Below, in pieces: positions 2,933-63,687 of a DNA stretch of 64,000 nt (position 1 is the stretch's first letter; each line of letters begins with the position of its first letter). The notes under the pieces were generated by a model, which was not told the DNA's origin, searched no databases, and saw only the letters and a program-made list of their open reading frames with translations. The position numbers were made by a program, and so were the translations under genes. The DNA is from Nemertoderma westbladi (Eukaryota > Animalia > Xenacoelomorpha): NCBI GenBank assembly GCA_032718475.1, contig JAUCBJ010008798.1, positions 62,001 through 126,000 of the forward strand. Reading direction: 5' to 3'.

Positions 2933-4099
2933 ATGAGTGTCTCAGACAAAGAGGCACTAGAGGACAGCTATGAGACGGCGGCTGGACCGGCGACTGACGA
3001 TAGCGTAAATATTACTGTTGACGACAATGCCGACTATGACGACGCAGCGAGCGAGGCTGACGTAAGTGAACAGGAGGACGAGACAGTGACTAGTGAGGAA
3101 GAACAACAACCTCAAGTAATAGTATTAGGATCCCCTACCACTACTGTAAGGAAGGACCGCACAGCAGCCCGGACAGAGGTGAGTGATAGGGAGGGTAGTG
3201 TAGCAGAAGCGAGGGCCCGGAGCCCGGTTTCCAGACCTGTGGGTATGGTAAGTGCCGTGGTCCCAGCGGCTGTAAGGAGTACCCGTAGTTCCCGAAATAA
3301 TCCTTCAAGTCCACCAAGTGTAAGTCAGGTAAGCGAGAGAGAACTTGACATCGCGATAAAAAAGAAACTTCGCGCGCACGCCGGACATATAACCCGGACG
3401 GCGGACAAGGTAAGGACGATGTTAGCAGACTCAGCGAACATTGGAAGGGAAGGGTTAGTAGAGATTAGAAGAGGATACAACTCAGCGTTATTCAAACAGA
3501 CGGAGGAGCTTGCAGTCCTAGCAAAGAAGGCAGTAGAGTCTCAGTCGAGCGACATGGCGACGAGGATTTACAACAGGGTTTTAGCAGCCTTGTTAGAGCA
3601 CCGCGAGTTATCGGAGCGATTCCGACGAGTTAGGACGGAGAACTGGTTGCTATGGGCATCACAAGCGCAGGCGACTCAGGTGAGTGACGCAGAGTCGAGA
3701 GATTTAGTGGAGCGAGAAGAGACGCAAGATAAGGAGGAGCGCCGTTATCAGAGGGAAGTTACTAGCTGGCTGATGCAGAGTGGAGTGGTGGTACCGGGCC
3801 AGGTGCTACCGACGACGGAGAACATCCAACAGAGAACGTTAACTCCACCCGATGACGCATCTAGAGACAGTGGCGATTACCAGGTTAGTCACGCGCGAGG
3901 GAAAGTTATATGTGCTAGATCCCTTGTTTCTCACAACTCGGCGGAAGAGAGAAGACGCCGACTAGACGAACAACAGGCGGAAGTTTTGCGTGCATCGGAA
4001 GCACGGAAGGAAGCCGAGCGGGAAAGGGAGCGAACACGTAAGTTAGACGCAAAGTTGCGAGAGTTGGAAGATAAAGGTAAGTGTAAAAGCCTTTGCTGA
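2933..4099 (+). pseudogene. Truncated Gag-like ORF (acidic N-terminus plus coiled coil), probably from a second BEL-type element, cut by the LTR at 4082
   Basis: 388-aa ORF whose last codons are read from the LTR. Its low-complexity and coiled-coil layout resembles the N-terminus of the Gag at 7579, and the upstream ATACCGGTAT motif is shared with the BEL leader. No diagnostic domain remains. Confidence 0.5.
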
Positions 4100-5318
4100 A
4101 TTGCCCCGTTATTTTTATTATTTTTTACATTAAAATACTCTGTAGTTGATTTAATAGGTGTAAGAGACCGTATTATTGCTGTATCGGTGTTTTTTAGAGG
4201 ATCTAAGAGCTATTTCCTCCGTATGTGTACTGTGGAAGGCATAGTTGATGATTCTATGGCAATTCCGTGACGCAAAAGGTGATAGCTACTCTTGAACAGT
4301 AGTTACTATGACGACGGTTAACAGCTGATATTCATACGTGTTGATTTTCTTTGTTCTACGGCGTCTCTCAGTTCAGTCAGCCAATCAGAGCATTTTTATG
4401 GCTCTTGTACAGAAATTTCCTAGAAATCACGCAATGCTTTATGTGCAGTGTTGACATTCTGTCCTGAGCCAGGTGAGAGCGGCTTGGGAATATTTTGTGC
4501 TTTTCTGTTTTAGCCTAACACTAGTAGGCTTAATTATAAGGACTATATCCGTTATCAACACTTAATATCTCACTGGCCACTGGTTAACTGGCCCATACTC
4601 AATCAACGCAACATACCTAATCTAATATACCTGTGCATACTTTTATATTGTTATACTGCTATTTACTGTCGGTTCTTCATAATATGGTTGATGAATTATT
4701 ATATTTGGAATAACGATAAATAACCCCGAAACCCAATATTCTTGATATACCGAAGGTAAGAGAGAAAGGTTACATATAACGATTGTGACTTATGTTAAAG
4801 TGGTTTGAAGTGAATCTAATGTTATCTGATAGACCCTACATGAGTCGGTCTGTGTTCCTTTTATATGTGACTAAAATCAGTGAAGATCGGCAGATTAGTG
4901 TGCAGTATTGTGCAGCATTGTGTATGAGTGAGACTGATAACGAAGCATTTCCTAAAGAATGCGCCATATATGTGAATTGTAACTAAGCCATATCGTTGTG
5001 AGTAGTTTAAGTCATAACTCTGTTTTTATAGATAGAGCGCCACGTCCTAAAGGAACTGTTAATATTCCCCGAAGGTGAATAATATTGTCAGAGATTATAT
5101 AATACTGTCAGTCGAATAATACATTAGGCTTACCTAGCAATAAGATTAAGCCGTCGAACCCAATCTCCCGGGTATATCCAGCGGGTGAATGATCGCGCAC
5201 AGATTGGTTTCGACTAGTGTAGTGAATCAAATACTTGTCAGAGGCTAAAAGTGACTTATTATCTAGAAGACATCCTAATTTGGCGGGTTAAACTGCCAAA
5301 GGTCTGAAAGCGCGAACA
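4082..5318 (+). repeat. BEL 5' LTR (1237 bp)
   Basis: TGTAAAAGCC...GCGCGAACA; direct repeat of 22034-23252. Confidence 0.95.
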
Positions 5319-5329
5319 ATAACGGATAT
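5319..5329 (+). promoter_or_regulatory. Candidate self-priming primer-binding site ATAACGGATAT
   Basis: Abuts the LTR end, lacks the TGG of tRNA PBSs, and is the exact reverse complement of LTR bases 4545-4555 (ATATCCGTTAT). Confidence 0.65.
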
Positions 5330-5685
5330 CGCTTCTTTATTGCAGTAAGCAATAAAGTTGAAAGTACCGGTCAACCGGTAAACCTGAACGGTACATCTGT
5401 AGGTCAGTAGGCCCAACTGCCAGAACCGGTACTGCTGTAGGCCCGTAGGTCCAACTGCCAGAACCGGTACTTCTGTAGGTCCGTAGGCCTAACTGTCCTA
5501 ACCGGTACTTCCCGTATAAGTACATTAGTATTATTCGATTTGATTATTGTATACCGGTAGGCTGTTTAAGAGATTAGGGACTGTACACCCCTTGTTTCTT
5601 TTGGAGCTTACTTATTTCTGTCAGTTTTATTTGTTTGTAGGCCAGTATTGAACAGAAGGCGTGTAAGCCTGATCATATTGTACAG

Positions 5686-6250
5686 ACAATTTGTAGGCTG
5701 GGCTGTTGTCTGATTGCTGTTAAGTCTGAACGGATTGCAGTGTGTGTAGATCACCTGTCCGATAAAGAACGGTTAGGAAGTAGGGGCAGCCAAAGCTGTA
5801 AGGTAAACCCCCATCTAAAGAATAAGTCGTACTACTGGGTTAGAACGCATACTACCTAATCATTTCGGAGTCTGCATGTCCTGTAGTTTATTTAGGCTTG
5901 AGAGTAGTCTGCCATCGTTTAGTCTGTACTTTGTTTGTGTAGTCTGTACAGGTAGCGTATCATATTTATTTAGATAATTTGTAGGCTGGATAGTTGTCTG
6001 GCTTGTTTATTAGGTCTGAACGGATTGCAGTGTGTGTAGAGCCTCTGTCCGATAAAGAACGGTTAGGAAGTAGGGGCAGCCAAAGCTGTAAGGTAAACCC
6101 CCATCTAAAGAATAAGTCGTACTACTGGGTTAGAACGCATACTACCTAACTATTTCGGAGTCTGCATGTCCTGTAGTTTATTTAGGCTTGATAGTAGTCT
6201 GTCAGTATTTGGTCTGCATTTTGTTTGAGTGGTTTGTACGCGTAGCGTAA
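5686..6250 (+). repeat. 290-bp tandem duplication in the BEL 5' leader
   Basis: GATAAAGAACGGTTAGG at 5761 and 6051, with a long near-identical core. Confidence 0.9.
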
Positions 6251-7578
6251 TATTTATTATTCAGAGTTTATGCGATTATTCGCAACATTCATTCCCCAAG
6301 TTTGTTCCTACAATAATTGTGTTTGTTATACATACCGCTATAGTTAAATTAACCCCGGTACTACACGGGCTGCTTGGCGTAGGTAAAGACTGGTGATTTT
6401 GTGCACCGGTCACTCCAGCAGATGCCGTGGTTCTTTTAGCTGTTCAAGTATATTTAACTACTGATTATATGTTGTACAAGTACTCGTACCTAATTTAGGG
6501 TTTAGTGTACAGTGCTTTCCGAAAGTAATTAGTGTAGACATTATATTTGTGTTGTAAAGTGGTTGATAGGCACGTTCGATTAGCTCTATTAACTTCTAGG
6601 TAGGAACACTCCGTGATACATAACGTAGTACCTATAGCGATACGGCTATAGGTCGTCAGGCGGTGGTATTTTCCTATCTGGACAACGCAGTGTATTTACT
6701 ACTACGTATTATTTTCAAATACCGCAGTACCCTGTCCGTTGTAATAACCAGAATTCTAACCCTTTGTTAGGCTGGTTTGTAGACTTCTTGTAAAATTACC
6801 CTGAAAATTCGTATTTTGTGTTTTTTGTAAATTTTTGTGTTTATTTAGAGATTGTAATCTCACCCGAATTGTACGTAATTTGTAGTATTAAGTAACTTAG
6901 GTAAATTAGCATTATTTGTTTTAGTGTCCTATAAGTAACACTTCACTGAAAGCGCACCGCTTTGTGTAGTGATTACTCCCCAGAAATAATAACATTTATT
7001 TCAAACATTGACAAAACCCATTAAAACGGGTATATATATATTATAAATCAAATCTAACGATTTATAAATAGTAGGCCTACCATACAACCATTAGGTCTCA
7101 ATATCAGTTGGATTACTGCTCAAATAACGGTAATAAAGTAAGTAAAGTAACCAAGTAACCCTAAAATTCAGAAATTCAATTATTTAAAATAATTGATATA
7201 CCGGTATTTACGATAGGCCTATTATCTTTATTTCTATAAATTTAGGCTGAAATTATACCGGTACTTGTAATTAATTCTAGTCCAGAATTATATATACTAC
7301 AAACTGTAAGCTGTATACCGGTATTCCCGATAGGCCTATTATATATTTATATATATTTGTGCTAAAATTATACCGGTATTCTGTGATAAACCTAGTCTGT
7401 AATAATACTTATATAGTTATATATACTATAAGCATACCGGTATTCTAATATATTATATATATCACGCTACACTGAGTAGCAGTATAGGTAATTAATTACT
7501 AGGCTAGCAGTTAATACTGAGTTACTAGACTTGCTCAGACTGTAATACAGCAGTAGACATTCAACTGTACACATAAAC

Positions 7579-10500
7579 ATGTCTGATACTAAGCAGAACC
7601 TGTCAGACAGTTTATTAGATGTAACTATCTGCGACTCAGATAGAGGCGTAGAACCGTCTAGTCGTAAGTTCAGTTCACCTCCCACTGTGAGGAAGGTCAT
7701 CCCTCCTGTAGTAATAACAGAACCTAGGCTGGTCCAACATCGTAGGTCTATCATAGGCACTCGAGCTCAGGTCAAGCGGGACCAAGAAGCAGCGGAACAG
7801 CAACAACCCGTGAGCCAAGAAATTATTTCTCAGCGGCCCGACAGCTCCAGTAGTGAAGATACTGTAGAACTGACACCCGAGCGCGGAGCAAGGATGACGG
7901 ATGCGGTTTATTCGGATCCCCTTCTCATCCTTCCTGCAGCCGTACTCACTAGGTTATTGATCGCTGTGGAAGAACACCAGATCGATTGGGCGAGAAGTCA
8001 ACGCTCAACTAAAGATAGTTATGCGGGATACACAAGGGAAGAACTGAAGTCCATGGTCGAGTCGCAATGGAACTTCCCCGGACCCGGACTCCCGTTTGAT
8101 TTATCAGAAGCTGCCTGGGAAGACATACACCGGATGGGAGTAGCCAAGGAAACCATCGATCCAGCTGTGTGGAAGAGGTCCGCAGCCGGATACGCACAGG
8201 GATTCTTCAGCTCTATGGAGCGAGTAGAAAAACAACTGTTACAACAACCTCAAGGACCTCAAGAGCAGGGACAACTGCTTTATCAAGTTAGAGAAAGAAT
8301 TCTGCGAATCAGGCTAATATTATCAGCCTTTGAAGAGGCTTCTAAAAGAAGACAAGACACGTCGTTGCAAGTTGCCGTAAAGACTTGGTTTCAACGGGTG
8401 AGTCGCCAGGTTCAAGGAACAGCTCAGTGGAAAGCTCAGCTGGAGGAGCGCTCAACCCATGGAGAATCAACAGACGCTACTTTTTCCCAAGTGGAAAGTG
8501 AAGCGACGGCAGAGAAACCGCATAAGAGAGATGCCATTGACATCTATCTGTCAGACTATCAACGTTTTTTAGGTGATGACGAGTTGAGGAGAAGGTTAGA
8601 TGGACTTAGCCCTAATAGCGAAGGAACTCAGCGTGTGTTGGATGCCATCGATGTGGAAATGAGGGCTGCGAATCAGGCTAAATTTGATGAACAACTCCGC
8701 CTGACACGAGTCCAAGAAGAACAAGTAAAGAAAAAACGTATAGAAGACAGAAAGAAAGCAGCAGTGGTAGCTGCAGAAGCAGAAAGAAAAGCGGCAGCGG
8801 CAGAGGCAGCGGCAGAGGCAAAAGCGGCCGAAGCTGCAAAGCAAAAGCGGCCAGCTGCAGCGGCAGCGGCAGAAGCAAAGGTGGCAGAAGCAGAACGGAG
8901 AGCGACTGAAGAAACCACCCAATTAGAATTGGAAAACATTCAGGAGAATCAAGACTGCATAAATAAACAGTTAACAGCTAGTAATATGCAGATGATGAAT
9001 CGATCTACTCCCAAAAGACAGGGATATACATCATCTGAGGAAGGCGATACCACCGATACTGAAGGCAAAGGAAATAGATCTCGTCTAAGCAGACGTAAAA
9101 GAACATTCCACCGTCAGAAATTGCCTGATTTGCCTCCAGCTGTTAGAAGGCAACTAAATAACACCAACTTAGGTAGTACAGAGCCCACAGACCAAATAAT
9201 TAAAATAGAAAGACTCCCTACTATAGTAGATGAGCCTGAAATAATTAGGCCTGTTCTTGAAATCACCCCTTCGGTGATAGACACACCTGTGCTCCCTGAA
9301 GCTACCTCTAAATTCCCTCTGCATAGCACTAAGCTACCTGTGCCCAGTAGAACTGCCCAGGAGACAGTTCAGGTCCTGGACCCCGAGCGAAATATTCATG
9401 ATTTGTCGCCCGTTGTCCCTCGTCCGCCCGCTACAACGTTGGCGACTCCCGCTTCGGCGGTCGAATGGGTGGACGAGAGACGGCGGGGGATGGATCTCCT
9501 GCTCGGGCAGATGCAGGAGACTGTTCAGCAATTCAAGGGCACAGTAAGGGAAAGTAGGCTAGAGTTGCAAGAAGTGCAGCAAAGTATCGCGCTAGAACGC
9601 GATAAATTAGTAAATACTCAAAGGGGTATACCACCACCCTCGGTAACAATGTGTCAACCTGTTAGGTCTGAAGTATCTCATGCGCAAGGTGTGGAGCCTA
9701 CACGCATATATACTGCTAGCGAAGTAGAAACTCCTATAGTGAACCCTATTAAGGGTAATTATAGACCTGTTGATAATGACATTCCCTATAGACCTGATCA
9801 TAATCCGAGAAATTTATATACCGATAACTCGATATTAAATAACACGATGGCCCAAGAAAGTTTTACGCGTCAAATGGCTAGAACCGAAGCCCGGCAAGCG
9901 GTGAAGGTGGGAGAGATCGTCAAGTTCAATGGAGATGAGATGAAATGGTTACCTTTTAATGAATATTACAAAGATAACATACAGAACTCTGTACTATCTA
10001 ATGGAGAGAAACTTAGATTCCTCATCGAGTGCTTGGAAGGATCTCCCAAGTTAATGGCGTTAAAGTTTATTGGACATCCAGACGGATTAAGACAAGTTTG
10101 GGATACACTAAACATCAGGTATGGTAATAGGAATAACATAGCTGGGTATTTGTATGCAAAGTTGGTAGCGCCCCGAAAGTTTATTAGCAACGGGATTATA
10201 GAGTTTTCCGATGAAATTCAGGAGATCTGCAGACAATTAGATTGGCTAGGTAAGTCTCATGAGTATCAGAGTGCTATGGTTATTAGAGCAGTGGCTTCTA
10301 CTTTACCGAAGGGTGGAGTAGGTACACGCTGGGACAAAAAGGTGTTATACATGATGGAACAACAACAACGAGACCCTACCATGACTGATCTCATGACATT
10401 CTTGGATGGCGAAGTGAAATTACAGCTCATAAAACAGTCCAGAGAGAAGACATCGGAAAACAAGGTAAGTGAGAAACCCGTCTCCAGAAGAAAGATAACA

Positions 10501-12178
10501 CCAGTGTGTTATACCGACGACGGCGAAAGCCAAGCTTCCCAAGAGGAGGACAGCGGGAAAGACACTGAAAGATCTTATTATGTCAATAAAACACCTAACG
10601 AACAGGGAAGTAAATTTAAGTCTCGATCCCATGACAAGAGAGAACAGGTAAGAAAAACTCCTCCTACGTCTCCCAAGAGAATTCAGGTAAGAAAGCCCGA
10701 AGAAAGAACGAGAGTGCACACTGTCACCCAAAATAAGGTAAGTAACATCAAACCGAAATGTGCGCTATGTGACGGGACCCACCGTTTGAATATGTGTGAT
10801 GAATTCCTGAAGAAATCATTAACGGAGAGACGAGAAGTCATGTGGGATAAGCGGTTATGTTATAATTGCCTCAGACAAGGACACCAACGGCGAACCTGTT
10901 ACTCTGACATAAGGTGTGCAAAGTGTGGTGCGAAACATCATATCTTGTTGCACGCTGAATTCGAGCGAAATAGTCCGAATCAGGTAAGTGATTCCGAACT
11001 ACATGTCCAATTCAGTGATGTGAACGACACTGATCAATCTGAGATGGAAGGATTCTATACGGACGAGTTCTCCGACGAAAACGAATCCTGTTACATGATA
11101 AATACCGCAGTGTATCGAGCACTCACATATGAAAAAGATACGGACAGCGACCTCACTCTAACTACTTCTGATCGACAACCATCGTGGAAAGCACCAACTT
11201 CCGATGTAGGAATCCGAGAATTTCCTGTAGTCCAGTTACGGGTCCATGGACCTCAGAAGAGCTATATAGTGAACGCCCTCCTGGACTCCGGTAGTACAGG
11301 AACATTCATCGACAAAGAGCTAGCCGAAGACATATTTGCTGGACAACCCAAGTTCCGAACTAAGCTAAACATGTCCGGCATTATGCAAGTTTGGAAATCT
11401 ACATTAACAGCGGATTATTATGTAGGCGCGTTGTCCACCCCCCAGGACGAACTAGGAGAACATAGCATAAGGTCAGTGAAAATGGTGGCTATAAAGAACT
11501 TCGCTACTACTCAAGCAGACCTTTATAATTGGGACGAGGATGAGAGCATCCAACATCTTAACATACCTCGATTCCAGACTGATTATCCTGGAGTGCAAAT
11601 ACTCATCGGCCAAAACGCGCATGAGGCGCTCGAGACATTGGAGAAACGGCCTGCTCAACCGCAGCCACTACATGAACGCCCTCCTGGACTCCGGTAGTAC
11701 AGGAACATTAATCGACAAAGAGCTAGCCGAAGACATATTTGCTGGACAACCCAAGTTCCGAACTAAGCTAAACATGTCCGGCATTATGCAAGTTTGGAAA
11801 TCTACATTAACAGCGGATTATTATGTAGGCGCGTTGTCCACCCCCCAGGACGAACTAGGAGAACATAGCATAAGGTCAGTGAAAATGGTGGCTATAAAGA
11901 ACTTCGCTACTACTCAAGCAGACCTTTATAATTGGGACGAGGATGAGAGCATCCAACATCTTAAGATACCTCGATTCCAGACTGATTATCCTGGAGTGCA
12001 AATACTCATCGGCCAAAACGCGCATGAGGCGCTGGAGACATTAGAGAAACGGCCTGCTCAACCGCAGCCACTACAGACCTATGCGGTAAGAACTAGAGTA
12101 GGTTGGTACTTTACTGGCCCTTCCCGTAGAACACTCAGAGAAAGACTACCGCAAGAGCAGCGTCTGCCAGGTGAGTGA
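7579..12178 (+). CDS. gag: BEL Gag-aspartic protease, frameshifted by a 403-bp tandem duplication of the protease region
   Basis: Pao-type Gag core (KFNGDEMKW...EKLRFLIECLEG); knuckles CALCDGTHRLNMC, CYNCLRQGHQRRTC and CAKCGAKHHILLH; protease ALLDSGS. ORFs 7579-11697 and 11540-12178 become one frame when one duplicate is removed. Confidence 0.9.
11270..12075 (+). repeat. Tandem duplication, 2 x 403 bp, covering the protease core
   Basis: Copies 11270-11672 and 11673-12075, with about four substitutions seen between them. Confidence 0.95.
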
Positions 12179-12237
12179 ATGGGAAGATGATACTAGTGAG
12201 GGAGACGATTTAACTGAGGGAACCCCATACTCCTCAG
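12171..12237 (+). other. Candidate 67-nt spliceosomal intron between protease and RT
   Basis: CAG|GTGAGT donor, TTTAAC branch-like motif at 12209-12214, CCCCATACTCCTCAG acceptor. Removal deletes the TGA at 12176-12178 and fuses Gag-PR in frame with Pol. Confidence 0.6.
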
Positions 12238-15200
12238 ATAACGACGACGTTCACCAGCTTTTTGATGAGGAGAATACCATCGATCTCCTTAAGGAAAACG
12301 AGGCTTGGCAAAACCAAGTGAACTTATGTCAACTTCTTTATCCATCTGAACGAGAAGCTTATAACGACGAGCTAAATGACGTCATTGAGCGTTGTAATGC
12401 CAAGACTCGAGATGAACATGCCGTACGATTCTTTACGCAAGAGGCGGTAGAGCCCAATTCCTACGATAAAGCCTTATCGGTGGAAGAGGAAAGGGCCAAG
12501 CAGATCCAAGAGACAACTACACGTTTCCTCAAAGATCAAGGTAGGTATGAAGTCGGTCTACCTTTCCGCAAGAGAGAACCGAAGTTCATCAATAACAGAC
12601 CCTTGGCGGAAAAAAGAATCGCGCAACTCCATCGACGCCTTACGGCTAATTCTTCAGCTAAAGAAATGTATCAAACACAGCTGGAGAAATTTATTAGTAA
12701 GGGATACGCGGAGAGAGTACCGGAAGAAACACCTGTGACTGAAAGAACGTATTACTTAACTCACCATTACGTTCCTAAACCCGGTAAACCACATGAAGTG
12801 AGAGTAGTGTTTGATGGCTCCGCTCTTTACATGGGTCAATCCCTTAACTCTGAATTGTTACCCGGACCCAACTTACTTCAATCTTTGTTGGGAATTCTTT
12901 TAAGATTGAGACAATATTCGATTGCTTTCGCCTCCGATATAGAAGGCATGTTCTTACAAGTCAAGGTGTTAGATAGGGATCGAGATAGTCTACGATTTCT
13001 GTGGTGGCCCGAAGGAGACCTCAACCAGAAACCGGTGGAGTACTGGATGACCATCCAGGCCTTTGGGATAATCTCAAGCCCTTCCAACGCCTGTTCGGTA
13101 GTGCGTACCACTGCAGAGGACAACCGAGAGGCATTCTCTAAGGAAGTGATCGACAACATCAAGCGAGACATATACATGGACGATAATCTGAAGTCCCTCC
13201 CATCAGTTGAGGAAGCCATTGAGGTCGCTAAAGGAACGGTAGAGTGCTTAAAAAGAGGTGGGTTTCGATTAACGAAATTCACCAGCAACTCCCGTGAGTT
13301 TCTGGAGTCGATCCCTGCGGAAGATCGAGGGGCGAAAGATCTAGATTTGATCAAAGATGATCTGCCAGAAACCAAGACACTCGGCTTGAAATGGGACACA
13401 GAGCGAGATATCCTGTTTTTCCAGCTAAAACAGCGAGATAATCCAGTTCGAACCAAACGGATTTGCTTAAGTATACTGAGCACTTATTTCGATCCATTGG
13501 GATTTATTAGCCCAGTTATATTGATTGCTCGTAGTTTGGTACAACAAATGTGGCTTGAAAACCACTCATGGGACGATCCACTTAAGGGAGAATTATTAAA
13601 GAAGTGGATGAAATGGGAAGATTCTCTGCCGGCTATCGAGGATTTTATAATTTCCCGTTCATATTTTGGTCATGTTCTCCCTACGTATTCCTATCAACTC
13701 CATGTGTTTGGAGACGCCAGCGATATGGGAATAGGTATAGTAGCCTATCTAAGAGTGGAAACTCCGGATGGAATCAAAGTCGCCTTGGTTACTTCTAAGG
13801 CATTAATCAACAACAAGTTGAAAGTTCCTCGAGCGGAGTTAAAAGCGGCTCTATACGCTACAGCCATCGGCCGGAATGTAACAGAACAGATTGACTATCC
13901 ATTAGAGAAAACTGTCTATTGGACCGACGCTTTACTCGTGTTAGAGTATATAACCAATGAAGTCTGTCAGTTCAGCGTCTTCGTTACCAACAGAGTAGCC
14001 ATCATACTTAGTCGCACGACGATGGACCAATGGAGACATTGCCCCGGAACGATTAATCCAGCAGACATCGCTTCCCGAGGAGCGACTCCAAAGGAATTGG
14101 TAAATACTCCCGAATGGTTAGGTGGACCCGACTTTCTCTACAGAGAAGAAGAAGAATGGCCTCCCCATCTCACAACAGCAGAGATCAGACAGGCCAAGGG
14201 AGCGGAGAAAGTTAAACCCAAAACTCGAGCGAGTAAATCGAAGTTGTTTAAACCTGCGGTTGATCTATCTGTATTATTTACTTCCGGAGAGGATGCTTTG
14301 GATCAGAAACCCACCGCCACGACTAAAGAAGTCTTGGAAATCCGTGACAAGGATTGGAAATCTGGAATACCAGATATCGCGCAAGGACTCTCACCCCTCT
14401 TGCAGAGAGCGATACGTCACTACAGTTCCTGGAATCGGCTCTGTAAAGCCGTCACCTATTTAAAACGATGTTTTCATCATCGTTACTCCGGGACAAAGAC
14501 CAATAGTGATGATGCTCCATCAACATCTGCACGAGTCCATGTTGTTAAAGATCTTCCCAAATACAAGATATCCGACAGGTTTCTAAAGGAGAAGATCAGT
14601 TACCAGGAGCATGATGAAACCAACAAACAGATGCTGAGACTCCTACAATGCTATGAGGATCCCGATAAGTATTTCCTGTTGTTAAGAAATCCGCAGATGC
14701 GCTTAAGGGATCGCTTCTCTAGTACCATGATAGATGGGTTAATACGTGTTGGAGGCAGGCTTACCAACGCCCCATTATCCTTTGACACTAAGTTTCCCAT
14801 ACTCATTAGAAATCTTGACATACAAATCAAGATGATTGTAGATGTTCATAGCAAACTGTATCATGCTGGAAGAGAACGAGTTCTGAGCGAAATTCGAACT
14901 CGCTACTATTTTTATAAACCCCGTAGGGCTCTGAACCAAGTCCTTAGGAACTGCATACCCTGTAGGAAAGCATTCAGTAGGCCTTTGACACAGCGAGAGG
15001 CAGAATTACCTAGGGAAAGAGTAAGCTTCTATGAACCACCCTTTACTAATACCGGTGTGGATTTATTTGGCCCTATTGAAGTATATCGTGCCCGGACTAT
15101 AGTCAAGAGATGGTGTGTCATCTTCGTTTGTATGACTTGTAGAGCTATCCATCTCGATATGGTAAACGATCTATCCACCAACAGCTTCGTGTTGAGTTTA

Positions 15201-16058
15201 CGACGACAGATCGCTCGCTTCGGAACCAGTAACACGATGAGATCGGATAAGGGAACGAACTTCATTGGCGCCAACAACGAAATTCAAGCTTACGTAAAGG
15301 ACTGGAACAAAAGACAGGTGGACGATCAGCTAAAGATAACAGCGTCTAGCTGGACCTTCAACGCCGCCGACGCCCCTTGGTGGGGAGGAAGTTGGGAGAG
15401 ATTGATTAGGAGCGTGAAGACTGCGTTCCACTTTATTGTACCTTGTCGCGCTTATCTCACCGACGAACTATTGCGGACGTTAATGGAGGAAATCGCCGCC
15501 TATCTCAACGAAAGACCGCTTATGCCAGTCTCTTCAAGTCCTGATTCCCTGGAAGCGCTAACACCCGCGCACTTTCTACTGAAGAAACCCGTAGCCATGC
15601 TCCCACGATCGGAGATCACAGACGGAGACGAGTACTGCCGTCGAACCTGGCAACTTATGCAGTTGCTATCCCGTCGTTTCGCTGACCATTTCGAGAAACA
15701 TTACCTGCCCACTCTACAACTTCGAACTAAGTGGTTTGCGCAGCAAGAAAACGTCAGCGCTGGAGACATGGTGCTTATTGTGGACCCCGATCTCCCACGT
15801 AAGCGATGGCAAACAGGACGTATCATCGAGACTCATATCTCGAGCGATGGTTTGGTGCGATCAGTAGAACTCGTCGTCATGCGGCGTAACTTTAAGAAAC
15901 CAGGGATAGTCTTTGAGACTCAACAGCTCAACCGCCCAGTGGGTCGTTTATGTTTACTGGAAAGAGACAGAGAGCTCTCCGGAAACTATGGAAGGCAAGA
16001 AACTCTTCCCACGACCACTTCCCTAATCCAACCCACATCTAGGGACTCCCCAACTTAA
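12171..16058 (+). CDS. pol: BEL Pol: reverse transcriptase, RNase H, integrase
   Basis: RT RVVFDGS and YMDD; RNase H LHVFGDAS and YWTDA; integrase HHCC (HSKLYH...CIPC), GVDLFGP, SDKGTNF and GGSWERLI. The GTG start is probably not a real initiator. Confidence 0.95.
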   Translation: MSEWEDDTSEGDDLTEGTPYSSDNDDVHQLFDEENTIDLLKENEAWQNQVNLCQLLYPSEREAYNDELNDVIERCNAKTRDEHAVRFFTQEAVEPNSYDKALSVEEERAKQIQETTTRFLKDQGRYEVGLPFRKREPKFINNRPLAEKRIAQLHRRLTANSSAKEMYQTQLEKFISKGYAERVPEETPVTERTYYLTHHYVPKPGKPHEVRVVFDGSALYMGQSLNSELLPGPNLLQSLLGILLRLRQYSIAFASDIEGMFLQVKVLDRDRDSLRFLWWPEGDLNQKPVEYWMTIQAFGIISSPSNACSVVRTTAEDNREAFSKEVIDNIKRDIYMDDNLKSLPSVEEAIEVAKGTVECLKRGGFRLTKFTSNSREFLESIPAEDRGAKDLDLIKDDLPETKTLGLKWDTERDILFFQLKQRDNPVRTKRICLSILSTYFDPLGFISPVILIARSLVQQMWLENHSWDDPLKGELLKKWMKWEDSLPAIEDFIISRSYFGHVLPTYSYQLHVFGDASDMGIGIVAYLRVETPDGIKVALVTSKALINNKLKVPRAELKAALYATAIGRNVTEQIDYPLEKTVYWTDALLVLEYITNEVCQFSVFVTNRVAIILSRTTMDQWRHCPGTINPADIASRGATPKELVNTPEWLGGPDFLYREEEEWPPHLTTAEIRQAKGAEKVKPKTRASKSKLFKPAVDLSVLFTSGEDALDQKPTATTKEVLEIRDKDWKSGIPDIAQGLSPLLQRAIRHYSSWNRLCKAVTYLKRCFHHRYSGTKTNSDDAPSTSARVHVVKDLPKYKISDRFLKEKISYQEHDETNKQMLRLLQCYEDPDKYFLLLRNPQMRLRDRFSSTMIDGLIRVGGRLTNAPLSFDTKFPILIRNLDIQIKMIVDVHSKLYHAGRERVLSEIRTRYYFYKPRRALNQVLRNCIPCRKAFSRPLTQREAELPRERVSFYEPPFTNTGVDLFGPIEVYRARTIVKRWCVIFVCMTCRAIHLDMVNDLSTNSFVLSLRRQIARFGTSNTMRSDKGTNFIGANNEIQAYVKDWNKRQVDDQLKITASSWTFNAADAPWWGGSWERLIRSVKTAFHFIVPCRAYLTDELLRTLMEEIAAYLNERPLMPVSSSPDSLEALTPAHFLLKKPVAMLPRSEITDGDEYCRRTWQLMQLLSRRFADHFEKHYLPTLQLRTKWFAQQENVSAGDMVLIVDPDLPRKRWQTGRIIETHISSDGLVRSVELVVMRRNFKKPGIVFETQQLNRPVGRLCLLERDRELSGNYGRQETLPTTTSLIQPTSRDSPT

Positions 16059-17708
16059 TATCGTTCGGAGTGGGCGTGTGACTCTATTATTTTATATTAT
16101 TTTATTATTTTTATATTTATGTATGTATTACTATGTAATTTTATTATAATCGTTTTATTTAATTTAGTAGAATATTATTTAGCGATTATTTAGTAGAATA
16201 GTGCAATATATTCGTGTTTATTGCGTACGTAATTACTTATATTATATTTAGTGTGACGGTGAGAAACAAGTGTTTTTCTCTTTCCTTACTGTCCGTATTA
16301 TATTATAAATACGTAACTACAGTAAGATGAAATGTCCGTACTTATTAAAGTACAATAAAGCCACTACTATATTCAAGTATTATTGGTAGGCAGAGTATTA
16401 GGAATGCAAAGTTCAGATCCTCGTGTCTCGGCTAAACCAAGCTCTGGGTAGACCTTGGAAACGACTTGCCTCTTCACACTGACATTGCTTCGTGCGATAT
16501 TGCTCTCATACCGTATATTAAATAATACATATAGTAGCGTGATGTCCCTTTAACAGTAGCGTATAACGCAAAATAAATCTGTTAAACCCTTTGACCATCT
16601 GTAATTCTAGTCGATTAAGATATCGCGGCACCCACCGATATACTTGAAAGACAAATTCTAGAATCAGTGGTTAACGTCCCCAGACAAGTTCTGGAATAAA
16701 TCGGTGCCCATCTCAAATATTAATTATTTAATATTTGCAAATCCAATAAATCAAAATCTGTAAATTCAGATCCTTCAACAATTCTAGTCAATTAAGATAT
16801 CGTAACATTTACCGATATTCTTAAAAGGACAATTTTCATAGAATTAAGGATCTTGTGTCCCCAGACATGTTCTAGAATCAAAATATGTCCATTTAATTAT
16901 CAAATAATAAAATTTCAGGGAATAAATTTAAATTCATGCCTTTTAATGAATTTAATAAATTGCCATTTTTACGCAATTTATAACATTCCCAAAATTCCAT
17001 TAATTAATAGATCAAGGGAGCGGAGATTTATCTTATTATGCGTATGAGTGTGCGAAAGTCTCCCAAACATAGTCAATAGCCGATAAAATTCATAAAGTCA
17101 TGTATCAAACAGGACATTGACTATTAAAGAATTACTATTAAATAACATCCCAGATCTGTATGCATGGGAATTACCCTAATTCTACCGCTAGCTTTACATA
17201 ATGTCACCATAGCAACAACCACGCTAGAATTAGAATTGAGTTAAAAGAACAATAGAAAGCTTGTCCCATTGAATAGCATAGGGAATAAATAGCGCACTGC
17301 TAGTATCCAAGGATACATAATAATACAGTGACATTCTGGAAGGCATTGACTAACGGACAAATGGCCCGAATGTGCGTAGTTGTGACCAGTTGTGTGGTAT
17401 TTGTGAGTTTATAGGTGAATGTTACTGCTAAAGTGTGTTTACAGTAGCTAGTCGCAATCGTGAAAGTAACCTAACTCTCCAAGGAAAACCTGAAGTACAT
17501 CTAAGCCTTTGGGACGGACAGTGGAGTGACTTGTGCCGGTTATCGTTGTCGTTGTACGGCTACGTCGTTGGCGAAAGTACAGCGACAGCGGTACATCGGC
17601 GCTGAGAATCTCACACTGTCCGGGGGCAAGGGAGAAGTAGGCAGCGACGCCCGCTCGCCTAATAAATATATAAACTCATTATAATATTGGTGAACTCGTA
17701 TAGCAGAT

Positions 17709-20700
17709 ATGACTGAATTAATAGAAGATGATCTTGGTATCAGGGAGAGATATACTCTACCTTTACAAGCGTTTGTCGATAGCTTGATACGCGGCGACGC
17801 TGATCCAACTACTACGGAGGACGATGGTCGTTATATCGAACCGCCAATGTCCCAGGAGCAACTTACGCGTGAATTGGACTATAGAAAATTCACTGCTCGC
17901 TATACGCATCGTAATGGTACGTATATGGACTTCCTGACTACTGGTCATCCTATTGATTTACACGACACCGACGATGTCGACACCGAAAGGGAAATGGTTT
18001 TATTTAAATATCATACCCAGCGGAGTCGAAACGACAAATCGAGAATAGAACACGAGAACTCTATTCGAAATAAACTCGAAAGAGAAGACGTTGAAGAACC
18101 TGATAAACGTAGCGGCTTCAACGAATATCTAGAATTCCTAAGAGAGACCTATCTCAATGTTGCTAGTCAACAAAACCTCGAAACTCGATATCCTCAAGGT
18201 ATACATCCAGATCCTATGATGGAACTCAAACGGCTCTATTTTACGATGATGTATCTTACCGCCGATCGACCACTACCTGTCGTTCCAGATAGCTTCGAAC
18301 AGATGGAGGAATATTGTAAAACTGGAGAGCGATCACCCGCGTTTCCCCTTCAAGACGTGCGTCTTTGGTATTACTGTGACGAATGCCCTAGACCTAACCA
18401 GCAAATCGAAAGGCATAAACATCCGCGGAGACGTTGCGCTAAACACAGTTTTACGCGATATACTTATGGGAGTTTCGAGCGAAACCTTTTCGACGTATCA
18501 CCTACGGTCGCGCGCCTTAAACGATCATTGAATAAACCCATGATCAGAGTTCCGGAATACTCGGTCAGACCTCCTCATTCCCAAGTGATACCTCAAACTC
18601 TCGATCCTAATAGTATTACGGATCCTCCCGAGCTGTACTCACTGTTCAAAGATCTAGTGTTACCTGAACAGTTGATTGGTGGCACTCCGGTAGTGGGTTC
18701 GTTAGATATTCGCCAACCTTACCTCGCTGGACTAGGACGCGGTCATCTAATATCACCGTTTAACCCCTACAACCGTCCTGGCCTCCCTCCGATCCAACCT
18801 GTTACAGAAGTCGAAGAGAGCGTGATACGAAATGCATTGGACGCTATTCGGCAGAAAATCGGAAAAGGAACTTACGATTGCTTGGAGAAACGTAAATTGC
18901 AACAACAAGTCCAAGCGGTGAAAGAACTAGCTTTACCCCAGTTCGATAGAGAAATACAAAATCTAGAGGAGGACATCGAACGTGGACGAACCTACTCCTT
19001 ACAGGAATTCCTGGACGAGCGCTTGCAACAACAAGCGGAGGAAAATCAGCTCGAGGAGAGACATATAGAGCTGACTGAGAGGGAAGAAGCTGCTTTAGCC
19101 CAACCAGAAACTCAAATTCTCGTGACGGATCTCTATTCCAAAACGATCCTCCACCCCTCGATGGTTCCTCATTTTAAAGACAAGCTCTTTGCTACGGTAC
19201 AGCCTCAACCGGTTAATACCGATCTCAGATCTCAAGAACTCATTGCTGACGCTCCTATGATACAACGTCCACCCATCGCGGCTGCTCGTGTCGATGGTGT
19301 ACTTGTTGAGCCTCCGGACAATAGAGCGGATCTTGTCCGTCGCATGGTACACGATGTTAACATACGCGCTAGACCTTTGCCGGACTCATTTTATGGAATT
19401 AAGGATCATCCTTATTACGTCAATTTAAAGCAATATTACATGGTAAAACCGGAAGATCCTACGCATAGTCTGAGGTTTCTACCATTAATCAATCCTCTCG
19501 ACCTTGTCGAACTCGAACAACTACAAAAACATCTAGATCAGCTAGTTAAACTAAACTCATTTCGAAAACCGTATAATATTTCCAGAATAGAGAAAGAAAT
19601 ATTACCTCCGTACAATCTTGATGGATTCATTAAAACTCGATTAGTGCACTGGAATCTTGACGTGTTATTCGAGGAAGAAAGAATAAAACGATATGGAGAT
19701 GTGGAAACCTATACTACACAATGCTTAAAGTATAGAGATTTACCCAATGCTAGCGAATGCGCTACTTTGTGGCATCCAGTGGGAATGACTCTCGAAAACG
19801 CCACTAAAGAATGGAACGAGACTCTTAACGTTATCGAGATGTATGGCGTTGTTACTTATGACAACGAAGGTAGCGTTCTGGTGGGAGAACTAGGAACTAC
19901 GCGAATGATACATATACGAGGACTCGCTGGTTCTACCCACGTATTCACTCGAGCGTGTTCCGACGTGATTGATTATTCTTTTGAAACCCTTACGGAGACA
20001 CAAAAGAAACTTCGACATGGACAATTCGAGCTCGCGCAGCGTTACGTCACCGACACCGAGCGCAAACCGGCCATGGGTATCGATGGATCAATGTTACCCC
20101 AACCTGTGCTCGAAATGTTGTTTAACGAAAGAATCCTAAAAATCGGCTCAGCTGTTTATGGAGATCTCCAAAACGACTTCCGGAATATGGAAAACATTCC
20201 ATACCCTTTCGTTGATACTCAGCTGATTGCTCCTTGGGCCGAAGGCCGAGGTTTCTTTCGCACTATGTATGCCAATACACCCAGCGACATTACTAAGGTA
20301 CAACGGACATCCATCGGACATCTTGCCTTTCAAGAATATGGATGGAATTTCAAAGTTGGAAATCCTACCAATTACCAGCAAGTATATGGAGATCATTACT
20401 CTCGTTTATATTTTGATGGACCATTAACTGCGCCTGGTGCCGTATATAGCTTTATGAGTGTTCCACTTCGCCCTTCCTTAGCTATATACATGATCTTTGA
20501 AAACGCAGCACTTGCCGGTTGGCTAGCCGATGTGTGCAGTCGTACCATACGCGCTCACCCATTAATACTTGGAACTAAACTCGCCAAGTTAGACGAACAC
20601 AATAAGTTCATACGTTTCGAATGTTTCCGGCGCTTTCTGACTCCGTTCCGTAACGTCGATAGTCAGTTCAAGGACCGCGCGCTGACCAAACTCAGTCTGA

Positions 20701-21737
20701 GAGACTCAGCTGCGGAGAAACTGAGTAGCGCTGGATTTGCCGTTTTTCAAGACGTTTGTATACAGAACTTACATTCATCTGTTATACAAAGACCCCGAAT
20801 ACCTACAGGTTATTCTGTCGTGGAAATACAGACAGTGGATCCACTTACTGAGACAGACGCACCCACTTCGTCTATACATCTGGAAGATGAACCAGTATGC
20901 TTGGAATCAGAAGCGATTCAGCCTACAGCTTCCCGGAGCAGTGACAATGATTATGTCATAGAGTGGTATCAAGGTCCACAACGTCTCACAGCGTACGATT
21001 ATAGACACGCCAACTACGTTTCTCGAAAACGTTGTCGATTATGCGCATCGAGAGACCACTTCACCCCTCTAGACTCGAGCGTACCTTGTTCCTATTTCCT
21101 TGAACAACCGATGATGGAAATATATTGTGCTTATTGCCGGCTTAATAACTCTCATATTTTTGCCGTCTGCCCACAATTTATGACTCAATGTCATTACTGT
21201 CAACTTAAAGGACATGAAAGTTACAATTGTCCCTTTAATCGCGATTTAGAGAGTGTAGACGAGATGATCACCCTGCGATACATCCGAGCTTGGGAAGCGA
21301 ACGCGGATTTACATTGCGAATCCCGACATCGCTATTACCCTGGACGAGCTTACGAGGGAGTTTACGCGTTCCATCCTTATCTATTCGCGTCAATTGAACA
21401 GAAAACACGCGTACCAAGTTACGAGTTAATGAAGCGTGTTGGTGAGTGTATTTCCACCAAGTTTGTCAGAAAATACCTTAGAAACGTTAACCCTAATGAT
21501 ATAACCACATATCACCTGATCAATTTTATCCGTCAGGACCCTGAGTATGGCGACATCTTTGTGAACTCGCATCCTGAACTACAGGAAGTATCTCGGCGAC
21601 CATATGAATATCGAACCCGAGAACGCGAGCTGGAGAGAACCATTAAACCGAGAAAGTTCCTCACCACTCACGGTCCACCCACCGCTAGTGTCCAGACGAC
21701 CCGTCAAGGACCCGTAGGAGCTGCTGTCCTGTTCTAA
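17709..21737 (+). CDS. BEL ORF3, 1342 aa: putative DEDDy (RNase D/WRN/MUT-7-like) 3'-5' exonuclease with C-terminal CCHC zinc knuckles
   Basis: Intact ORF inside the LTRs. ExoI-like VVTYDNEG (~19848-19871); ExoII-like LPQPVLEMLFNERILKIGSAVYGD, then FVDTQLIA and SIGHLA...GWNFK; ExoIII-like PLRPSLAIYMIFE (~20462-20501). Knuckles CRLCASRDH, CAYCRLNNSHIFAVC and CHYCQLKGHESYNC. Confidence 0.7.
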   Translation: MTELIEDDLGIRERYTLPLQAFVDSLIRGDADPTTTEDDGRYIEPPMSQEQLTRELDYRKFTARYTHRNGTYMDFLTTGHPIDLHDTDDVDTEREMVLFKYHTQRSRNDKSRIEHENSIRNKLEREDVEEPDKRSGFNEYLEFLRETYLNVASQQNLETRYPQGIHPDPMMELKRLYFTMMYLTADRPLPVVPDSFEQMEEYCKTGERSPAFPLQDVRLWYYCDECPRPNQQIERHKHPRRRCAKHSFTRYTYGSFERNLFDVSPTVARLKRSLNKPMIRVPEYSVRPPHSQVIPQTLDPNSITDPPELYSLFKDLVLPEQLIGGTPVVGSLDIRQPYLAGLGRGHLISPFNPYNRPGLPPIQPVTEVEESVIRNALDAIRQKIGKGTYDCLEKRKLQQQVQAVKELALPQFDREIQNLEEDIERGRTYSLQEFLDERLQQQAEENQLEERHIELTEREEAALAQPETQILVTDLYSKTILHPSMVPHFKDKLFATVQPQPVNTDLRSQELIADAPMIQRPPIAAARVDGVLVEPPDNRADLVRRMVHDVNIRARPLPDSFYGIKDHPYYVNLKQYYMVKPEDPTHSLRFLPLINPLDLVELEQLQKHLDQLVKLNSFRKPYNISRIEKEILPPYNLDGFIKTRLVHWNLDVLFEEERIKRYGDVETYTTQCLKYRDLPNASECATLWHPVGMTLENATKEWNETLNVIEMYGVVTYDNEGSVLVGELGTTRMIHIRGLAGSTHVFTRACSDVIDYSFETLTETQKKLRHGQFELAQRYVTDTERKPAMGIDGSMLPQPVLEMLFNERILKIGSAVYGDLQNDFRNMENIPYPFVDTQLIAPWAEGRGFFRTMYANTPSDITKVQRTSIGHLAFQEYGWNFKVGNPTNYQQVYGDHYSRLYFDGPLTAPGAVYSFMSVPLRPSLAIYMIFENAALAGWLADVCSRTIRAHPLILGTKLAKLDEHNKFIRFECFRRFLTPFRNVDSQFKDRALTKLSLRDSAAEKLSSAGFAVFQDVCIQNLHSSVIQRPRIPTGYSVVEIQTVDPLTETDAPTSSIHLEDEPVCLESEAIQPTASRSSDNDYVIEWYQGPQRLTAYDYRHANYVSRKRCRLCASRDHFTPLDSSVPCSYFLEQPMMEIYCAYCRLNNSHIFAVCPQFMTQCHYCQLKGHESYNCPFNRDLESVDEMITLRYIRAWEANADLHCESRHRYYPGRAYEGVYAFHPYLFASIEQKTRVPSYELMKRVGECISTKFVRKYLRNVNPNDITTYHLINFIRQDPEYGDIFVNSHPELQEVSRRPYEYRTRERELERTIKPRKFLTTHGPPTASVQTTRQGPVGAAVLF

Positions 21738-22033
21738 AGGCCGTTAGACCTCGCTCCACTGAGGTTGATATTAATCAACCAGGTACTTCGACCGGCGGGT
21801 ATACCGATCGTAACCCTACACCTTCTGATGCAATTGTATTGCACCCTTCGCCTAGGAGCTACAGCCCTCCTCGTAAAGTGGCTCGCCCCAAAGAGAAAAG
21901 GACTCTTGCTAGCCTCAAGAAACTGCGTAAACGCCGTCCGCGTAAGAAAGACTAACTGTTTAGAGTATCTTTAGGTTTTAGAAACTGTGATTTTTATATT
22001 TTATAGACTGAAAATCCCATTTTCTGGGAGCGG

Positions 22034-23252
22034 TGTAAAAGCCTTTGCTGAATTGCCCCGTTATTTTTATTATTTTTACATTAAAATACTCTGTAGTTGA
22101 TTTAATAGGTGTAAGAGACCGTATTATTGCTGTATCGGTGTTTTTTGGAGGATCTAAGAGCTATTTCCTCCGTATGTGTACTGTGGAAGGCATAGTTGAT
22201 GATTCTATGGCAATTCCGTGACGCAAAAGGTGATAGCTACTCTTGAACAGTAGTTACTATGACGACGGTTAACAGCTGATATTCATACGTGTTGATTTTC
22301 TTTGTTCTACGGCGTCTCTCAGTTCAGTCAGCCAATCAGAGCATTTTTATGGCTCTTGTACAGAAATTTCCTAGAAATCACGCAATGCTTTATGTGCAGT
22401 GTTTACATTCTGTCCTGAGCCAGGAGAGAGCGGCTTGGGAATATTTTGTGCTTTTCTGTTTTAGCCTAACACTAGTAGGCTTAATTATAAGGACATATAT
22501 CCGTTATCAAACAAACAACTGCAAACTGGACTCACTCACTGACTTAATATCTCACTGGTTATCTCACTGCATTTATCTTACTTAACATTACTGCTTTGCT
22601 GTCGGTTAATCATTATATTTGTTGATGAATTATTATATTTGGAATAACGATAAATAACCCCGAAACCCAATATTCTTGATATACAGAAGGTAAGAGAGAC
22701 AGGTTACATATAACGATTGTGACTTATGTTAAAGTGGTTTGAAGTGAACCTAATGTTATTTGATAGACCCTACATGAGTCGGTCTGTGTTCTTTTTATAT
22801 GTGACTAAAATCAGTGAAGATCGGCAGATTAGTGTGCAGTATTGTGCAGCATTGTGTATGAGTGAGACTGATAACGAAGCATTTCCTAAAGAATGCGCCA
22901 TATATGTGAATTATAACTAAGCCATATCGTTGTGAGTAGTTTAAGTCATAACTCTGTTTTTATAGATAGAGCGCCACATCCTAAAGGAACTGTTAATATT
23001 CCCCGAAGGTGAATAATATTGTCAGAGATTATATAATACTGTCAGTCGAATAATACATTAGGCTTACCTAGCAATAAGATTAAGCCGTCGAACCCAATCT
23101 CCCGGGTATATCCAGCGGGTGAATGATCGCGCACAGATTGGTTTCGACTAGTGTAGTGAATCAAATACTTGTCATAGGCTAAAAGTGACTTATTATCTAG
23201 AAGACATCCTAATTTGGCGGGTTAAACTGCCAAAGGTCTGAAAGCGTGAACA
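22034..23252 (+). repeat. BEL 3' LTR (1219 bp)
   Basis: TGTAAAAGCC...GCGTGAACA. Differs from the 5' LTR by roughly a dozen point changes plus a poorly aligning block at ~22510-22620. Confidence 0.95.
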
Positions 23253-23700
23253 TCCACACCTGGTGCAGGAGTGGGGCTCGGTTAATTTGCAGCCGAGGCG
23301 GGTAGGGATTGATAAGCGGAGCTGAGAGTTAGAAGCTTGAGACCTAGAGAGTGGCGCGAAGGGTGGCCAGATTATTTTGGTAGACTGGGCCAGACCAATC
23401 AATGCTTGGAAGAGTTCGGTGCTTCGAGCACGGGTAACACGTGTAATCAACTCAAGGGCACTAGCTGTATCCAGAGCAGGTGAAACCATGGAAGTAAAAA
23501 GATGGCTCGAGAGTGAGTGACAGGCAGCCGCTGAAGCCAGGAAGGCGGAGGGGGGCGAGCTGAACTGCCGAACTTAAACCGAGACCACCAAGTCGCGCTG
23601 GTAAACTAGCCCAGATCCAAGCGGGGTCAGGATGGAAACATTGGCGACCTGTTCGAGTGTTGATCTGAGAGATTGATCGTACTTCTCTAGGAGGTCAGGA
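23253..23700 (-). mobile_element. Decayed CRE-like (restriction-like endonuclease class) non-LTR retrotransposon fragment
   Basis: Minus strand reads WIWASLPARLGGLGLSSAVQLAP/SAFLASAAA and LRLSIPTRLGCKLTEPHSCTRCG, matching the post-RT and zinc-knuckle region of CRE-like elements. Frameshifted, and cut by the BEL LTR. Confidence 0.65.
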
Positions 23701-24096
23701 TAATCTTCGAGGATAGTCTTTTTTCCTTAATTTTTTATTAAAAAATGCCAAAAAATAAAAATTTTTTAAGCGCTACCATTTGGCAGCGCAATCTACCTAT
23801 CTTTAAATCTACCAAATTCATCTAAATAGCGGTGGGCTTGAAAGCGAAATCTAAGAATAAATATTAGAACAAATTAACACATATATAATTAATAATTTAA
23901 CACTTTTGATTGCATGGGAATGAAATGGACTGCATTTTACAAGACAAATGAATCTACAATCACATCGTATGTCAAAACGATGAGTCAATGCTTAGAACGG
24001 TTTATGTATATTGGAATTCGGAGCAGCTCTGGATCCAAATAATTTGTCATATTCGGAGAAATATGCGAGTTGGGTGGATGTTTGAATTCGTGCAAT

Positions 24097-52064: not shown

Positions 52065-52260
52065 AGTGAGTGCGAAACAAAACTTAATCAGGTGAATTTA
52101 CCAAAAGAAAATGATTCTTCTGGTTCAGATATATTAATATTTCAATAAAAAAACATTAATCAAAGTTAAATTAATTTAATACTTCAATTAGGCCTACAAA
52201 TTTTGAATTATAAGGTCGTCAGTCGTCTAGTCTGTATGTATACCTATACCGGTAGCGGCA

Positions 52261-63631: not shown

Positions 63632-63687
63632 CTGAAACTGTACTGTCTGACTGTACTGGTACCTGGGTACGGTACACAACACACACC

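Follow-up and report, generated by a model that had tools for sequence, protein, structure and literature searches.

How does a long terminal repeat (LTR) retrotransposon begin reverse transcription when no tRNA-type site follows its 5' LTR, and what is the role of a third open reading frame (ORF) that encodes no envelope-like protein? Both questions are raised by a 19-kb BEL/Pao element in the xenacoelomorph Nemertoderma westbladi, found in a stretch of 64,000 nucleotides (hereafter the window) of contig JAUCBJ010008798.1 (GenBank assembly GCA_032718475.1, positions 62,001 to 126,000, forward strand). The explanation that we consider probable is that the window holds a damaged, probably recombinant copy of an element with a Tf1-style self-primer, an unspliced Gag-Pol and an exonuclease-like ORF3 that would act in trans and would not make the primer. 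That a self-primed BEL family carries a selected, exonuclease-like ORF3 is a statement to which we give somewhat better than an even chance. An earlier note on this DNA had drawn attention to three oddities within one element, namely a self-complementary primer binding site (PBS), a spliced pol and a nuclease ORF; the first and the last are present in some form, and the spliced pol is not supported.

The element and its family

The element is a divergent BEL/Pao LTR retrotransposon, with the following layout.

4082-23252, + strand: BEL element, 19,171 bp, with paired LTRs
4082-5318, + strand: 5' LTR, 1,237 bp, TG..CA ends
5271-5306, + strand: predicted U5 hairpin, just within the LTR end, -12.5 kcal/mol
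5319-7578, + strand: leader, 2,260 nt
7579-11697, + strand: gag-protease frame, with a long N-terminal extension, a DUF1759 capsid region, three Cys-His boxes and the protease
12102-16058, + strand: reverse transcriptase-RNase H-integrase frame, with YMDD at 13173, DAS at 13707 and a DD49E integrase
16059-17708, + strand: AT-rich spacer between pol and ORF3, 1,650 nt
17709-21737, + strand: ORF3, 1,342 aa from its ATG
22026-22033, + strand: short purine tract directly before the 3' LTR
22034-23252, + strand: 3' LTR, 1,219 bp, TG..CA ends, with a copy of the primer at 22497-22507 and a variant block at 22508-22623

The TG..CA repeats of 1,237 and 1,219 bp delimit a real element of about 19 kb, with 16.7 kb between them, and the leader of 2.3 kb and the spacer of 1.65 kb given in the earlier note agree with the measured lengths. 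The leader contains tandem repeats (38 nt in 3.2 copies at 5389-5511; 290 nt in two copies at 5684-6258), and the spacer a diverged direct repeat of about 100 nt (16603-16700 and 16780-16881). Pfam matches comprise DUF1759, Peptidase_A17, DUF5641 and an integrase zinc finger. The arrangement that defines BEL/Pao, a gag with three Cys-His boxes followed by protease (PR), reverse transcriptase (RT), RNase H and integrase between LTRs, is present; the boxes start at 10759 and the protease motif LLDSGS lies at 11278. The element thus shares with other BEL/Pao members the triple Cys-His gag, the DSG protease, the YxDD RT, the DAS RNase H and the DD(49)E integrase, the spacing of the last being the same as in Sinbad (PMC554778).

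Of 7,989 candidates scored in a search with pol, 186 proteins had E ≤ 1e-20, and the best 120 of them all carry PF05380. RT-RNase H sequences of 113 of those 120, seven being excluded for short coverage, were placed with the window element in a FastTree tree that included no outgroup and no labelled BEL clade references (Sinbad, Suzu, Sailor, Tas, Pao, BEL, Dan, Flow). The element is at most 43% identical to any of the 113, has a long end branch (0.88) and joins 62 sequences, largely from marine invertebrates and fish, at an open fork, in a 63-row group with an SH-like (Shimodaira-Hasegawa-like) support of 96. Its size is large for BEL/Pao, although no record: the international committee for virus taxonomy (ICTV) gives 4.2-10 kb for the Belpaoviridae, with priming by tRNA through an 18-nt PBS complementary to the 3' end of tRNA-Arg or tRNA-Gly (PMC8742986), and a genome survey of BEL elements reports a median of 7.4 kb and a maximum of 22.8 kb (PMC3118150). 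The element differs from this description in its 19.2 kb, in having no such 18-nt PBS, and in a third ORF that is not env-like. Since a tRNA-type PBS is a described trait of BEL/Pao and not a taxonomic criterion, its absence marks the element as a variant.

Evidence on the family comes from contigs of sequencing runs (X1, X3, X4, X5 and X6), none of which is recorded as RNA; the RNA status of X4 is a guess only, and X1 is possibly from the same source as the window. The element or part of it was found in seven of the eight listed runs. Contigs matching 11600-23400 number 85,720 in X1, 22,027 in X3, 409 in X4 and 830 in X5, and in each of these runs they cover all 30 bins of that interval, spacer included, so that spacer and ORF3 are integral parts of an amplified and diverse family. 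The family is highly amplified and of high copy number. It may also contain a shortened form: joints from 14212 to 15927 or 15935, seen in X1, X3, X4 and X5, remove the whole integrase region, and by calculation the tail of pol stays in frame, which suggests an amplified, non-autonomous subfamily with RT and RNase H only.

Priming of reverse transcription

Directly after the 5' LTR the element carries, in place of a tRNA-type site, a short sequence that matches its own LTR, and the features that bear on priming are these.

4535-4540, + strand: TATA-like box, 10 nt upstream of the putative primer
4545-4555, + strand: putative self-primer, ATATCCGTTAT, which complements the PBS exactly
4556-4689, + strand: hypervariable LTR block, beginning at the base after the primer
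5319-5329, + strand: PBS, ATAACGGATAT, without TGG, from the first base after the 5' LTR

The 11 nt that follow the 5' LTR match the reverse complement of 4545-4555 exactly, at offset 0. For predicted self-primers of plants the published criterion is a complement of at least 10 bp lying 0-5 bp after the LTR (PMC6317226), and by this Tf1-type measure, at least 10 nt of LTR complement 0-5 nt past the 5' LTR, the element qualifies with 11 nt at offset 0. Three of 16,652 internal positions equal such a match, 38 of 20,000 shuffled LTRs give a complement of this kind at offsets 0-5, and the overall chance lies between 0.0002 and 0.002. No TGG-type (tRNA) PBS follows the 5' LTR, and tRNA and Rfam searches of the element gave no match. 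A gypsy element elsewhere in the window (30111-37534), taken as a control, shows a TGG PBS and no self-complement longer than 6 nt. When the RNA is folded from a start at 4545, the primer-PBS duplex forms beside the U5 hairpin with a probability of 0.62-1.0, long-range RNA folds being weak evidence.

The LTRs point to the same position. Within the hypervariable block the 5' and 3' LTRs differ by 41 substitutions in 113 columns (36%) and by 24 gap columns, whereas outside it they differ at 12 of 1,102 columns (1.1%); the block is 116-134 nt long across the two LTRs. Among 15 listed joints, out of 63 in the family contigs, three fall in the block as length variants of the LTR; two of them start 1-2 nt past the primer, and the third retains a primer variant that still pairs by G-U.

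From these observations it is likely that the 5' end of the family's own RNA primes reverse transcription in the manner of Tf1, whose primer is 11 bases long and is cut off by RNase H (PMC7175516, PMC4600332). In the mechanism that we infer, the transcript would start at 4545, its first 11 nt would pair with the PBS next to the U5 hairpin, and the element's RNase H would cut after base 11. Error-prone strand transfer at that cut point would then drive the variability of the block that starts there. The earlier note's self-primer therefore stands as an exact 11-nt LTR complement at the PBS, with priming itself as the interpretation placed on it.

Several observations weigh against this interpretation. 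The TATA-like box lies just 10 nt before the primer, which disfavours 4545 as a canonical start, and if the initiator-like TCACT at 4570 were used, the start would fall downstream of the primer; folded from a start at 4400, the primer-PBS duplex has a probability of 0.01. A PBS-like sequence in one X4 contig is changed at 1-2 of 11 positions, unphased, and no compensatory primer/PBS pair was seen among the family contigs, where one primer variant is G-U compatible. The position of the box and the variant contig would both suit a different arrangement, in which the 11-nt complement is no primer, a host RNA such as a tRNA half or another small RNA primes instead, and the match is structural or fortuitous; priming by half-tRNAs exists in other LTR groups (PMC6317226). 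We regard this as unlikely, given an exact match at offset 0 with so small a chance of arising at random, a complement of the same length as that of Tf1, and variability that begins at the predicted cut site.

Expression of pol and the nature of ORF3

The PR and RT frames of the window copy are not continuous, and the earlier note took pol to be spliced. Two features of this region matter.

11270-12075, + strand: tandem duplication of 403 bp in the protease region, copies 99% identical
12171-12237, + strand: candidate intron, rejected; 67 nt, GT..AG, with a removal that is frame-compatible

The 67-nt stretch looks canonical, with a GTGAGT donor, a branch-like TTTAAC and a pyrimidine-rich CAG acceptor, and this look probably prompted the claim. 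It sits in an acidic PR-RT linker of about 144 codons, compared with a median of 68 (62-114) in the 42 parsable cases among the best 120 homologues. The linker was analysed over 12060-12340 in the best 25 of 2,334 contig pieces; X6, a second related label, covers 47 bases of it. Every one of the 11 listed pieces spanning the linker is gapped relative to the window copy (six of them with at least 31 letters on both sides, as our rule required), and their net lengths fall in one class modulo three, which means that PR and RT are continuous. At the frameshift site the gap is found in 860 of 860 of the depth in X5 and in 27 of 27 in X4. Among the best 40 of 51 linker variant rows, with three at the site excluded, those 5' of the frameshift are synonymous in 6 of 7 cases in the PR frame and in none of 7 in the RT frame. 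On the 3' side, read in the RT frame, 11 of 15 are synonymous outside the candidate intron and 6 of 15 inside it, with no stop. The frame break of the window copy is most likely a lesion, and it lies upstream of the GT donor.

Spliced pol, the state to which the earlier note had assigned the element, is contradicted by the single frame class of all 11 listed crossing contigs, by which the frameshift is most likely specific to the window copy, and the candidate intron was rejected. There remains the idea that a subfamily including the window copy removes 12171-12237 by splicing, or uses a programmed frameshift. The splice signals are canonical and frame-compatible, and the low synonymous count within the stretch (6/15) points the same way, a figure that is by itself uninformative. 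Weighing against continuity, X1 depth at the site drops from about 441,000 to 15,000-27,000, with about 44% of the remainder gapped, and the ungapped part suggests that a few copies, or contig ends, may share the state of the window copy. Against this idea stand the crossing pieces that are all in one class unspliced, branch-like Ts that read C in 52-88% of the X1 depth, a diverged contig without three of the donor bases, and the want of any spliced joint among the listed family pieces, those of X4 included. We consider it very improbable. Gag-Pol is likely made from one unspliced frame, and the BEL/Pao trait of a gag-pol whose frame is continuous, or whose two frames overlap, is seen in the family contigs and is broken in the window copy.

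The 403-bp duplication adds a second break, ending the gag-PR frame early at 11697. It was not seen among the listed family contigs. Eight X3 contigs run from the second copy into sequence resembling that upstream of the first, and at position 11710 the letter of the first copy makes up 98.6-100% of the depth, from which we take the duplication to be private to this copy or an assembly artefact.

ORF3 contains two recognizable regions.

19848-20504, + strand: exonuclease-like region, with D-x-E, KIGS..GD, FVDTQ and Y-x-x-x-E
21033-21230, + strand: three Cys/His knuckle-like motifs (CCHC), in the C-terminal part

ORF3 is under purifying selection. Among the best 40 of 1,674 variant rows (15 in ORF3, 17 in pol and 8 elsewhere, unscored), synonymous changes make up 14 of the 15 in ORF3, where 34% would be expected (P 2e-6), and 11 of the 17 in pol (P 0.009). 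ORF3 has no Pfam family match and no PHROG or PDB match of note, a word-based search found no homologue at E ≤ 0.001 among 3,678 candidates, and scans of viral contigs with ORF3 and RT gave none. The sole match among 1.84 billion representatives, at E 1.7e-7, is P0121, a singleton protein of 648 aa on a 9.4-kb contig; a search with the ORF3 profile A2 recovered P0121 alone. The layout of P0121 matches that of ORF3, with exonuclease-like motifs and C-terminal knuckles, and in PDB sequence searches its knuckles match retroviral nucleocapsids. A motif scan of metagenomes (264 stretches) yielded three loci, L001-L003; these are related WRN-like fragments of exonucleases, and nothing marks them as LTR relatives. 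L002 and L003 pass the PF01612 cut-off, and HHalign aligns them with ORF3 over 36 columns at a probability of 91%. The D-x-E of Exo I and the GD of Exo II are both present in ORF3. ORF3 is predicted to be an accessory protein, RNA-binding and 3'-5' exonuclease-like, that would likely act in trans. An env-like ORF3 was also considered and rejected; there is no transmembrane anchor, the top 19-residue hydropathy being 1.33.

The assignment to exonucleases has several points against it. The HHalign match spans just those 36 columns, and L002 and L003 had been preselected by the very motif that aligns; PF01612 is reached by P0121 at E 0.2 only and not at all by ORF3, which is also without a notable match in Pfam, PHROG or PDB. 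Exo III carries E in place of D (Y-x-x-x-E) in both ORF3 and P0121, PDB sequence searches found no exonuclease, and two structure predictions are of low confidence (predicted local distance difference test scores of 28.5 and 33.3). The altered third motif, the lack of a significant family match and the poor folds speak for a domain that is catalytically dead, or no exonuclease, and serves as an RNA-binding module only; inactive DEDD derivatives do function in piRNA pathways (PMC5408684). Acidic residues are nevertheless found at all four expected positions in ORF3 and P0121, and altered acidic sets (DEED) are known among rotifer ORF3s (PMC5408684), so that we hold a dead domain to be possible, if rather doubtful. 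What the earlier note called a nuclease ORF is thus a conserved ORF3 of 1,342 aa with exonuclease-like motifs, its identity as a DEDDy nuclease being weakly supported.

Could ORF3 and the self-primer form one system, as the earlier note proposed in joining its oddities into a single RNA-processing strategy? If transcription started downstream of the primer, as the TATA-like spacing would suit, the nuclease might mature the primer, for instance by trimming an RNA from its 3' end as far as the 11-mer in the 3' LTR copy that pairs with the PBS. The self-complementary PBS does co-occur with a constrained ORF3, and 3'-end processing has been proposed for DEDDy ORF3s (PMC5408684). The primer of Tf1, however, is made by RNase H (PMC7175516), and an RNase H motif is present in the element. 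Moreover, the best 15 of 63 joints across 11600-23400 include some that run from 19059 or 19066 to 21616-21816 and others that run from 18083 to 20934, and these delete the exonuclease and knuckle region. Such exonuclease-less variants, in several independent and diverged forms with diverged junctions, recur in X1, X3 and X5, and their recurrence argues against a coupled strategy, though ORF3 could be supplied in trans. Depth over the exonuclease region is lower in the family contigs, a figure not used as copy number. We therefore give primer maturation by ORF3 little credence, and there is an equally slim prospect that a BEL/Pao lineage dropped tRNA priming and captured an exonuclease-plus-knuckle ORF3 that makes or protects the self-primer, unlike the RNase H cut of Tf1. 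The trans-acting ORF3 that we prefer might use its knuckles to bind element RNA or small RNAs and so trim or shield them, most plausibly against host silencing; this is the weakest step of the proposed mechanism, and taken by itself an unlikely one.

Three side observations concern the ends of ORF3. A TATA-like TATATAAA lies in 17660-17709, about 40 nt 5' of the ATG, and ORF3 may have its own promoter instead of a spliced message. Past the stop, a basic tail resembling a nuclear localization signal is encoded in another frame (21600-21955). One X4 contig has seven gaps relative to the window copy across 21362-21892, and together with this tail it suggests that the ORF3 end of the window copy may be atypical of the family.

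The window copy, its surroundings and known systems

No target-site duplication was found at the ends of the element, where the flanks read GGTAAG and TCCACA; we read this as recombination or an assembly join in the window copy. The earlier note had mentioned neither this absence nor the 403-bp duplication nor the divergent LTR block. The type of block found in its 5' LTR also occurs in X4. With no target-site duplication and with mismatched LTR blocks, the window copy is probably a damaged recombinant of two insertions. Its flanks (2933-4081 and 23253-23700, + strand) resemble coding remnants and do not match each other. The 5' flank holds an open frame of 383 codons that is cut by the 5' LTR, has no Pfam match and is dissimilar to the gag of the element, and is presumably gag-like, to judge by a motif. 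In the 3' flank a decayed frame lies after the 3' LTR (23253-23700).

The remainder of the window contains other elements and two uninterrupted frames. The young Ty3/gypsy element that served as the control (30111-37534, + strand) has LTRs of 803 bp with one mismatch, a 4-bp target-site duplication and a single frame of 1,798 aa, and it sits within an inverted-repeat element with arms at 29796-30001 and 37909-38112. A Sir2-family frame at 24136-26058 (- strand), which we take to be SIRT6-like, has a C-terminal half made of a 27-nt (9-aa) repeat in about 31 copies. An ANTH-domain frame at 49908-52097 (- strand), GC-rich and of 729 aa, is presumably PICALM/AP180-like. Host genes without introns may be usual in this genome. 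Two fold-back elements, at 54113-56710 and 58810-63634, have long inverted arms of tandem sub-repeats.

Tf1/sushi elements, and likewise Tj1, Tcn1 and the plant copia TAR, have an LTR-adjacent PBS complementary to an 11-nt LTR segment, and Tf1/sushi elements a U5 hairpin beside it, as is predicted here. These are Ty3/gypsy or Ty1/copia elements, however, whereas the window element is a BEL with a putative self-primer and a 763-nt loop. Membership of the Tf1/sushi clade, which is marked by a Ty3/gypsy chromovirus RT, was rejected as the domains are those of BEL; the element would work like Tf1 without belonging to its clade.

For ORF3 the counterparts are the ORF3s of the rotifer Juno/Vesta and Athena/Terminon elements, which are separate ORFs 3' of pol with RNase D/WRN-like motifs, an altered acidic set, Cys/His motifs and no transmembrane domain (PMC5408684). 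The carriers described for them are non-BEL, and the ORF3 of 1,342 aa in the window is likened to them by description. The rotifer ORF3s are described as showing no clear departure from neutrality, in contrast to the purifying selection seen here, and by the accounts given there and in PMC6431247 no function of retroelement DEDDy ORF3s has been demonstrated. In large size, in extra coding and non-coding regions and in very high copy number the element resembles Ogre and Burro, from which it differs in that they are gypsy-type and in that the bar set in a review is 20 kb of internal sequence, compared with 16.7 kb here (PMC6431247).

The family is likely undescribed. In the literature searched, to which Repbase, Dfam, GyDB and subscription papers did not belong, we found no self-priming BEL element and no BEL element with an exonuclease ORF. 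A nematode BEL element is reportedly said to encode its own primer. Term look-ups in PMC7084138, PMC12440569, PMC6238403 and PMC2996953 returned nothing on BEL priming or exonucleases. The undescribed giant BEL lineage of the earlier note is accordingly large and divergent (at most 43% identity in RT-RNase H), with its being undescribed likely and not established.

Self-priming is on record for Ty3/gypsy elements, and for some groups of Ty1/copia it has been predicted (PMC6317226, PMC4600332, PMC7175516). A self-primed BEL family, if true, would represent a further independent origin of this mode of priming, in the least studied of the LTR superfamilies. With a selected ORF3, tens of thousands of variant contigs and natural deletions, the family makes the questions of how it primes and what ORF3 does testable.

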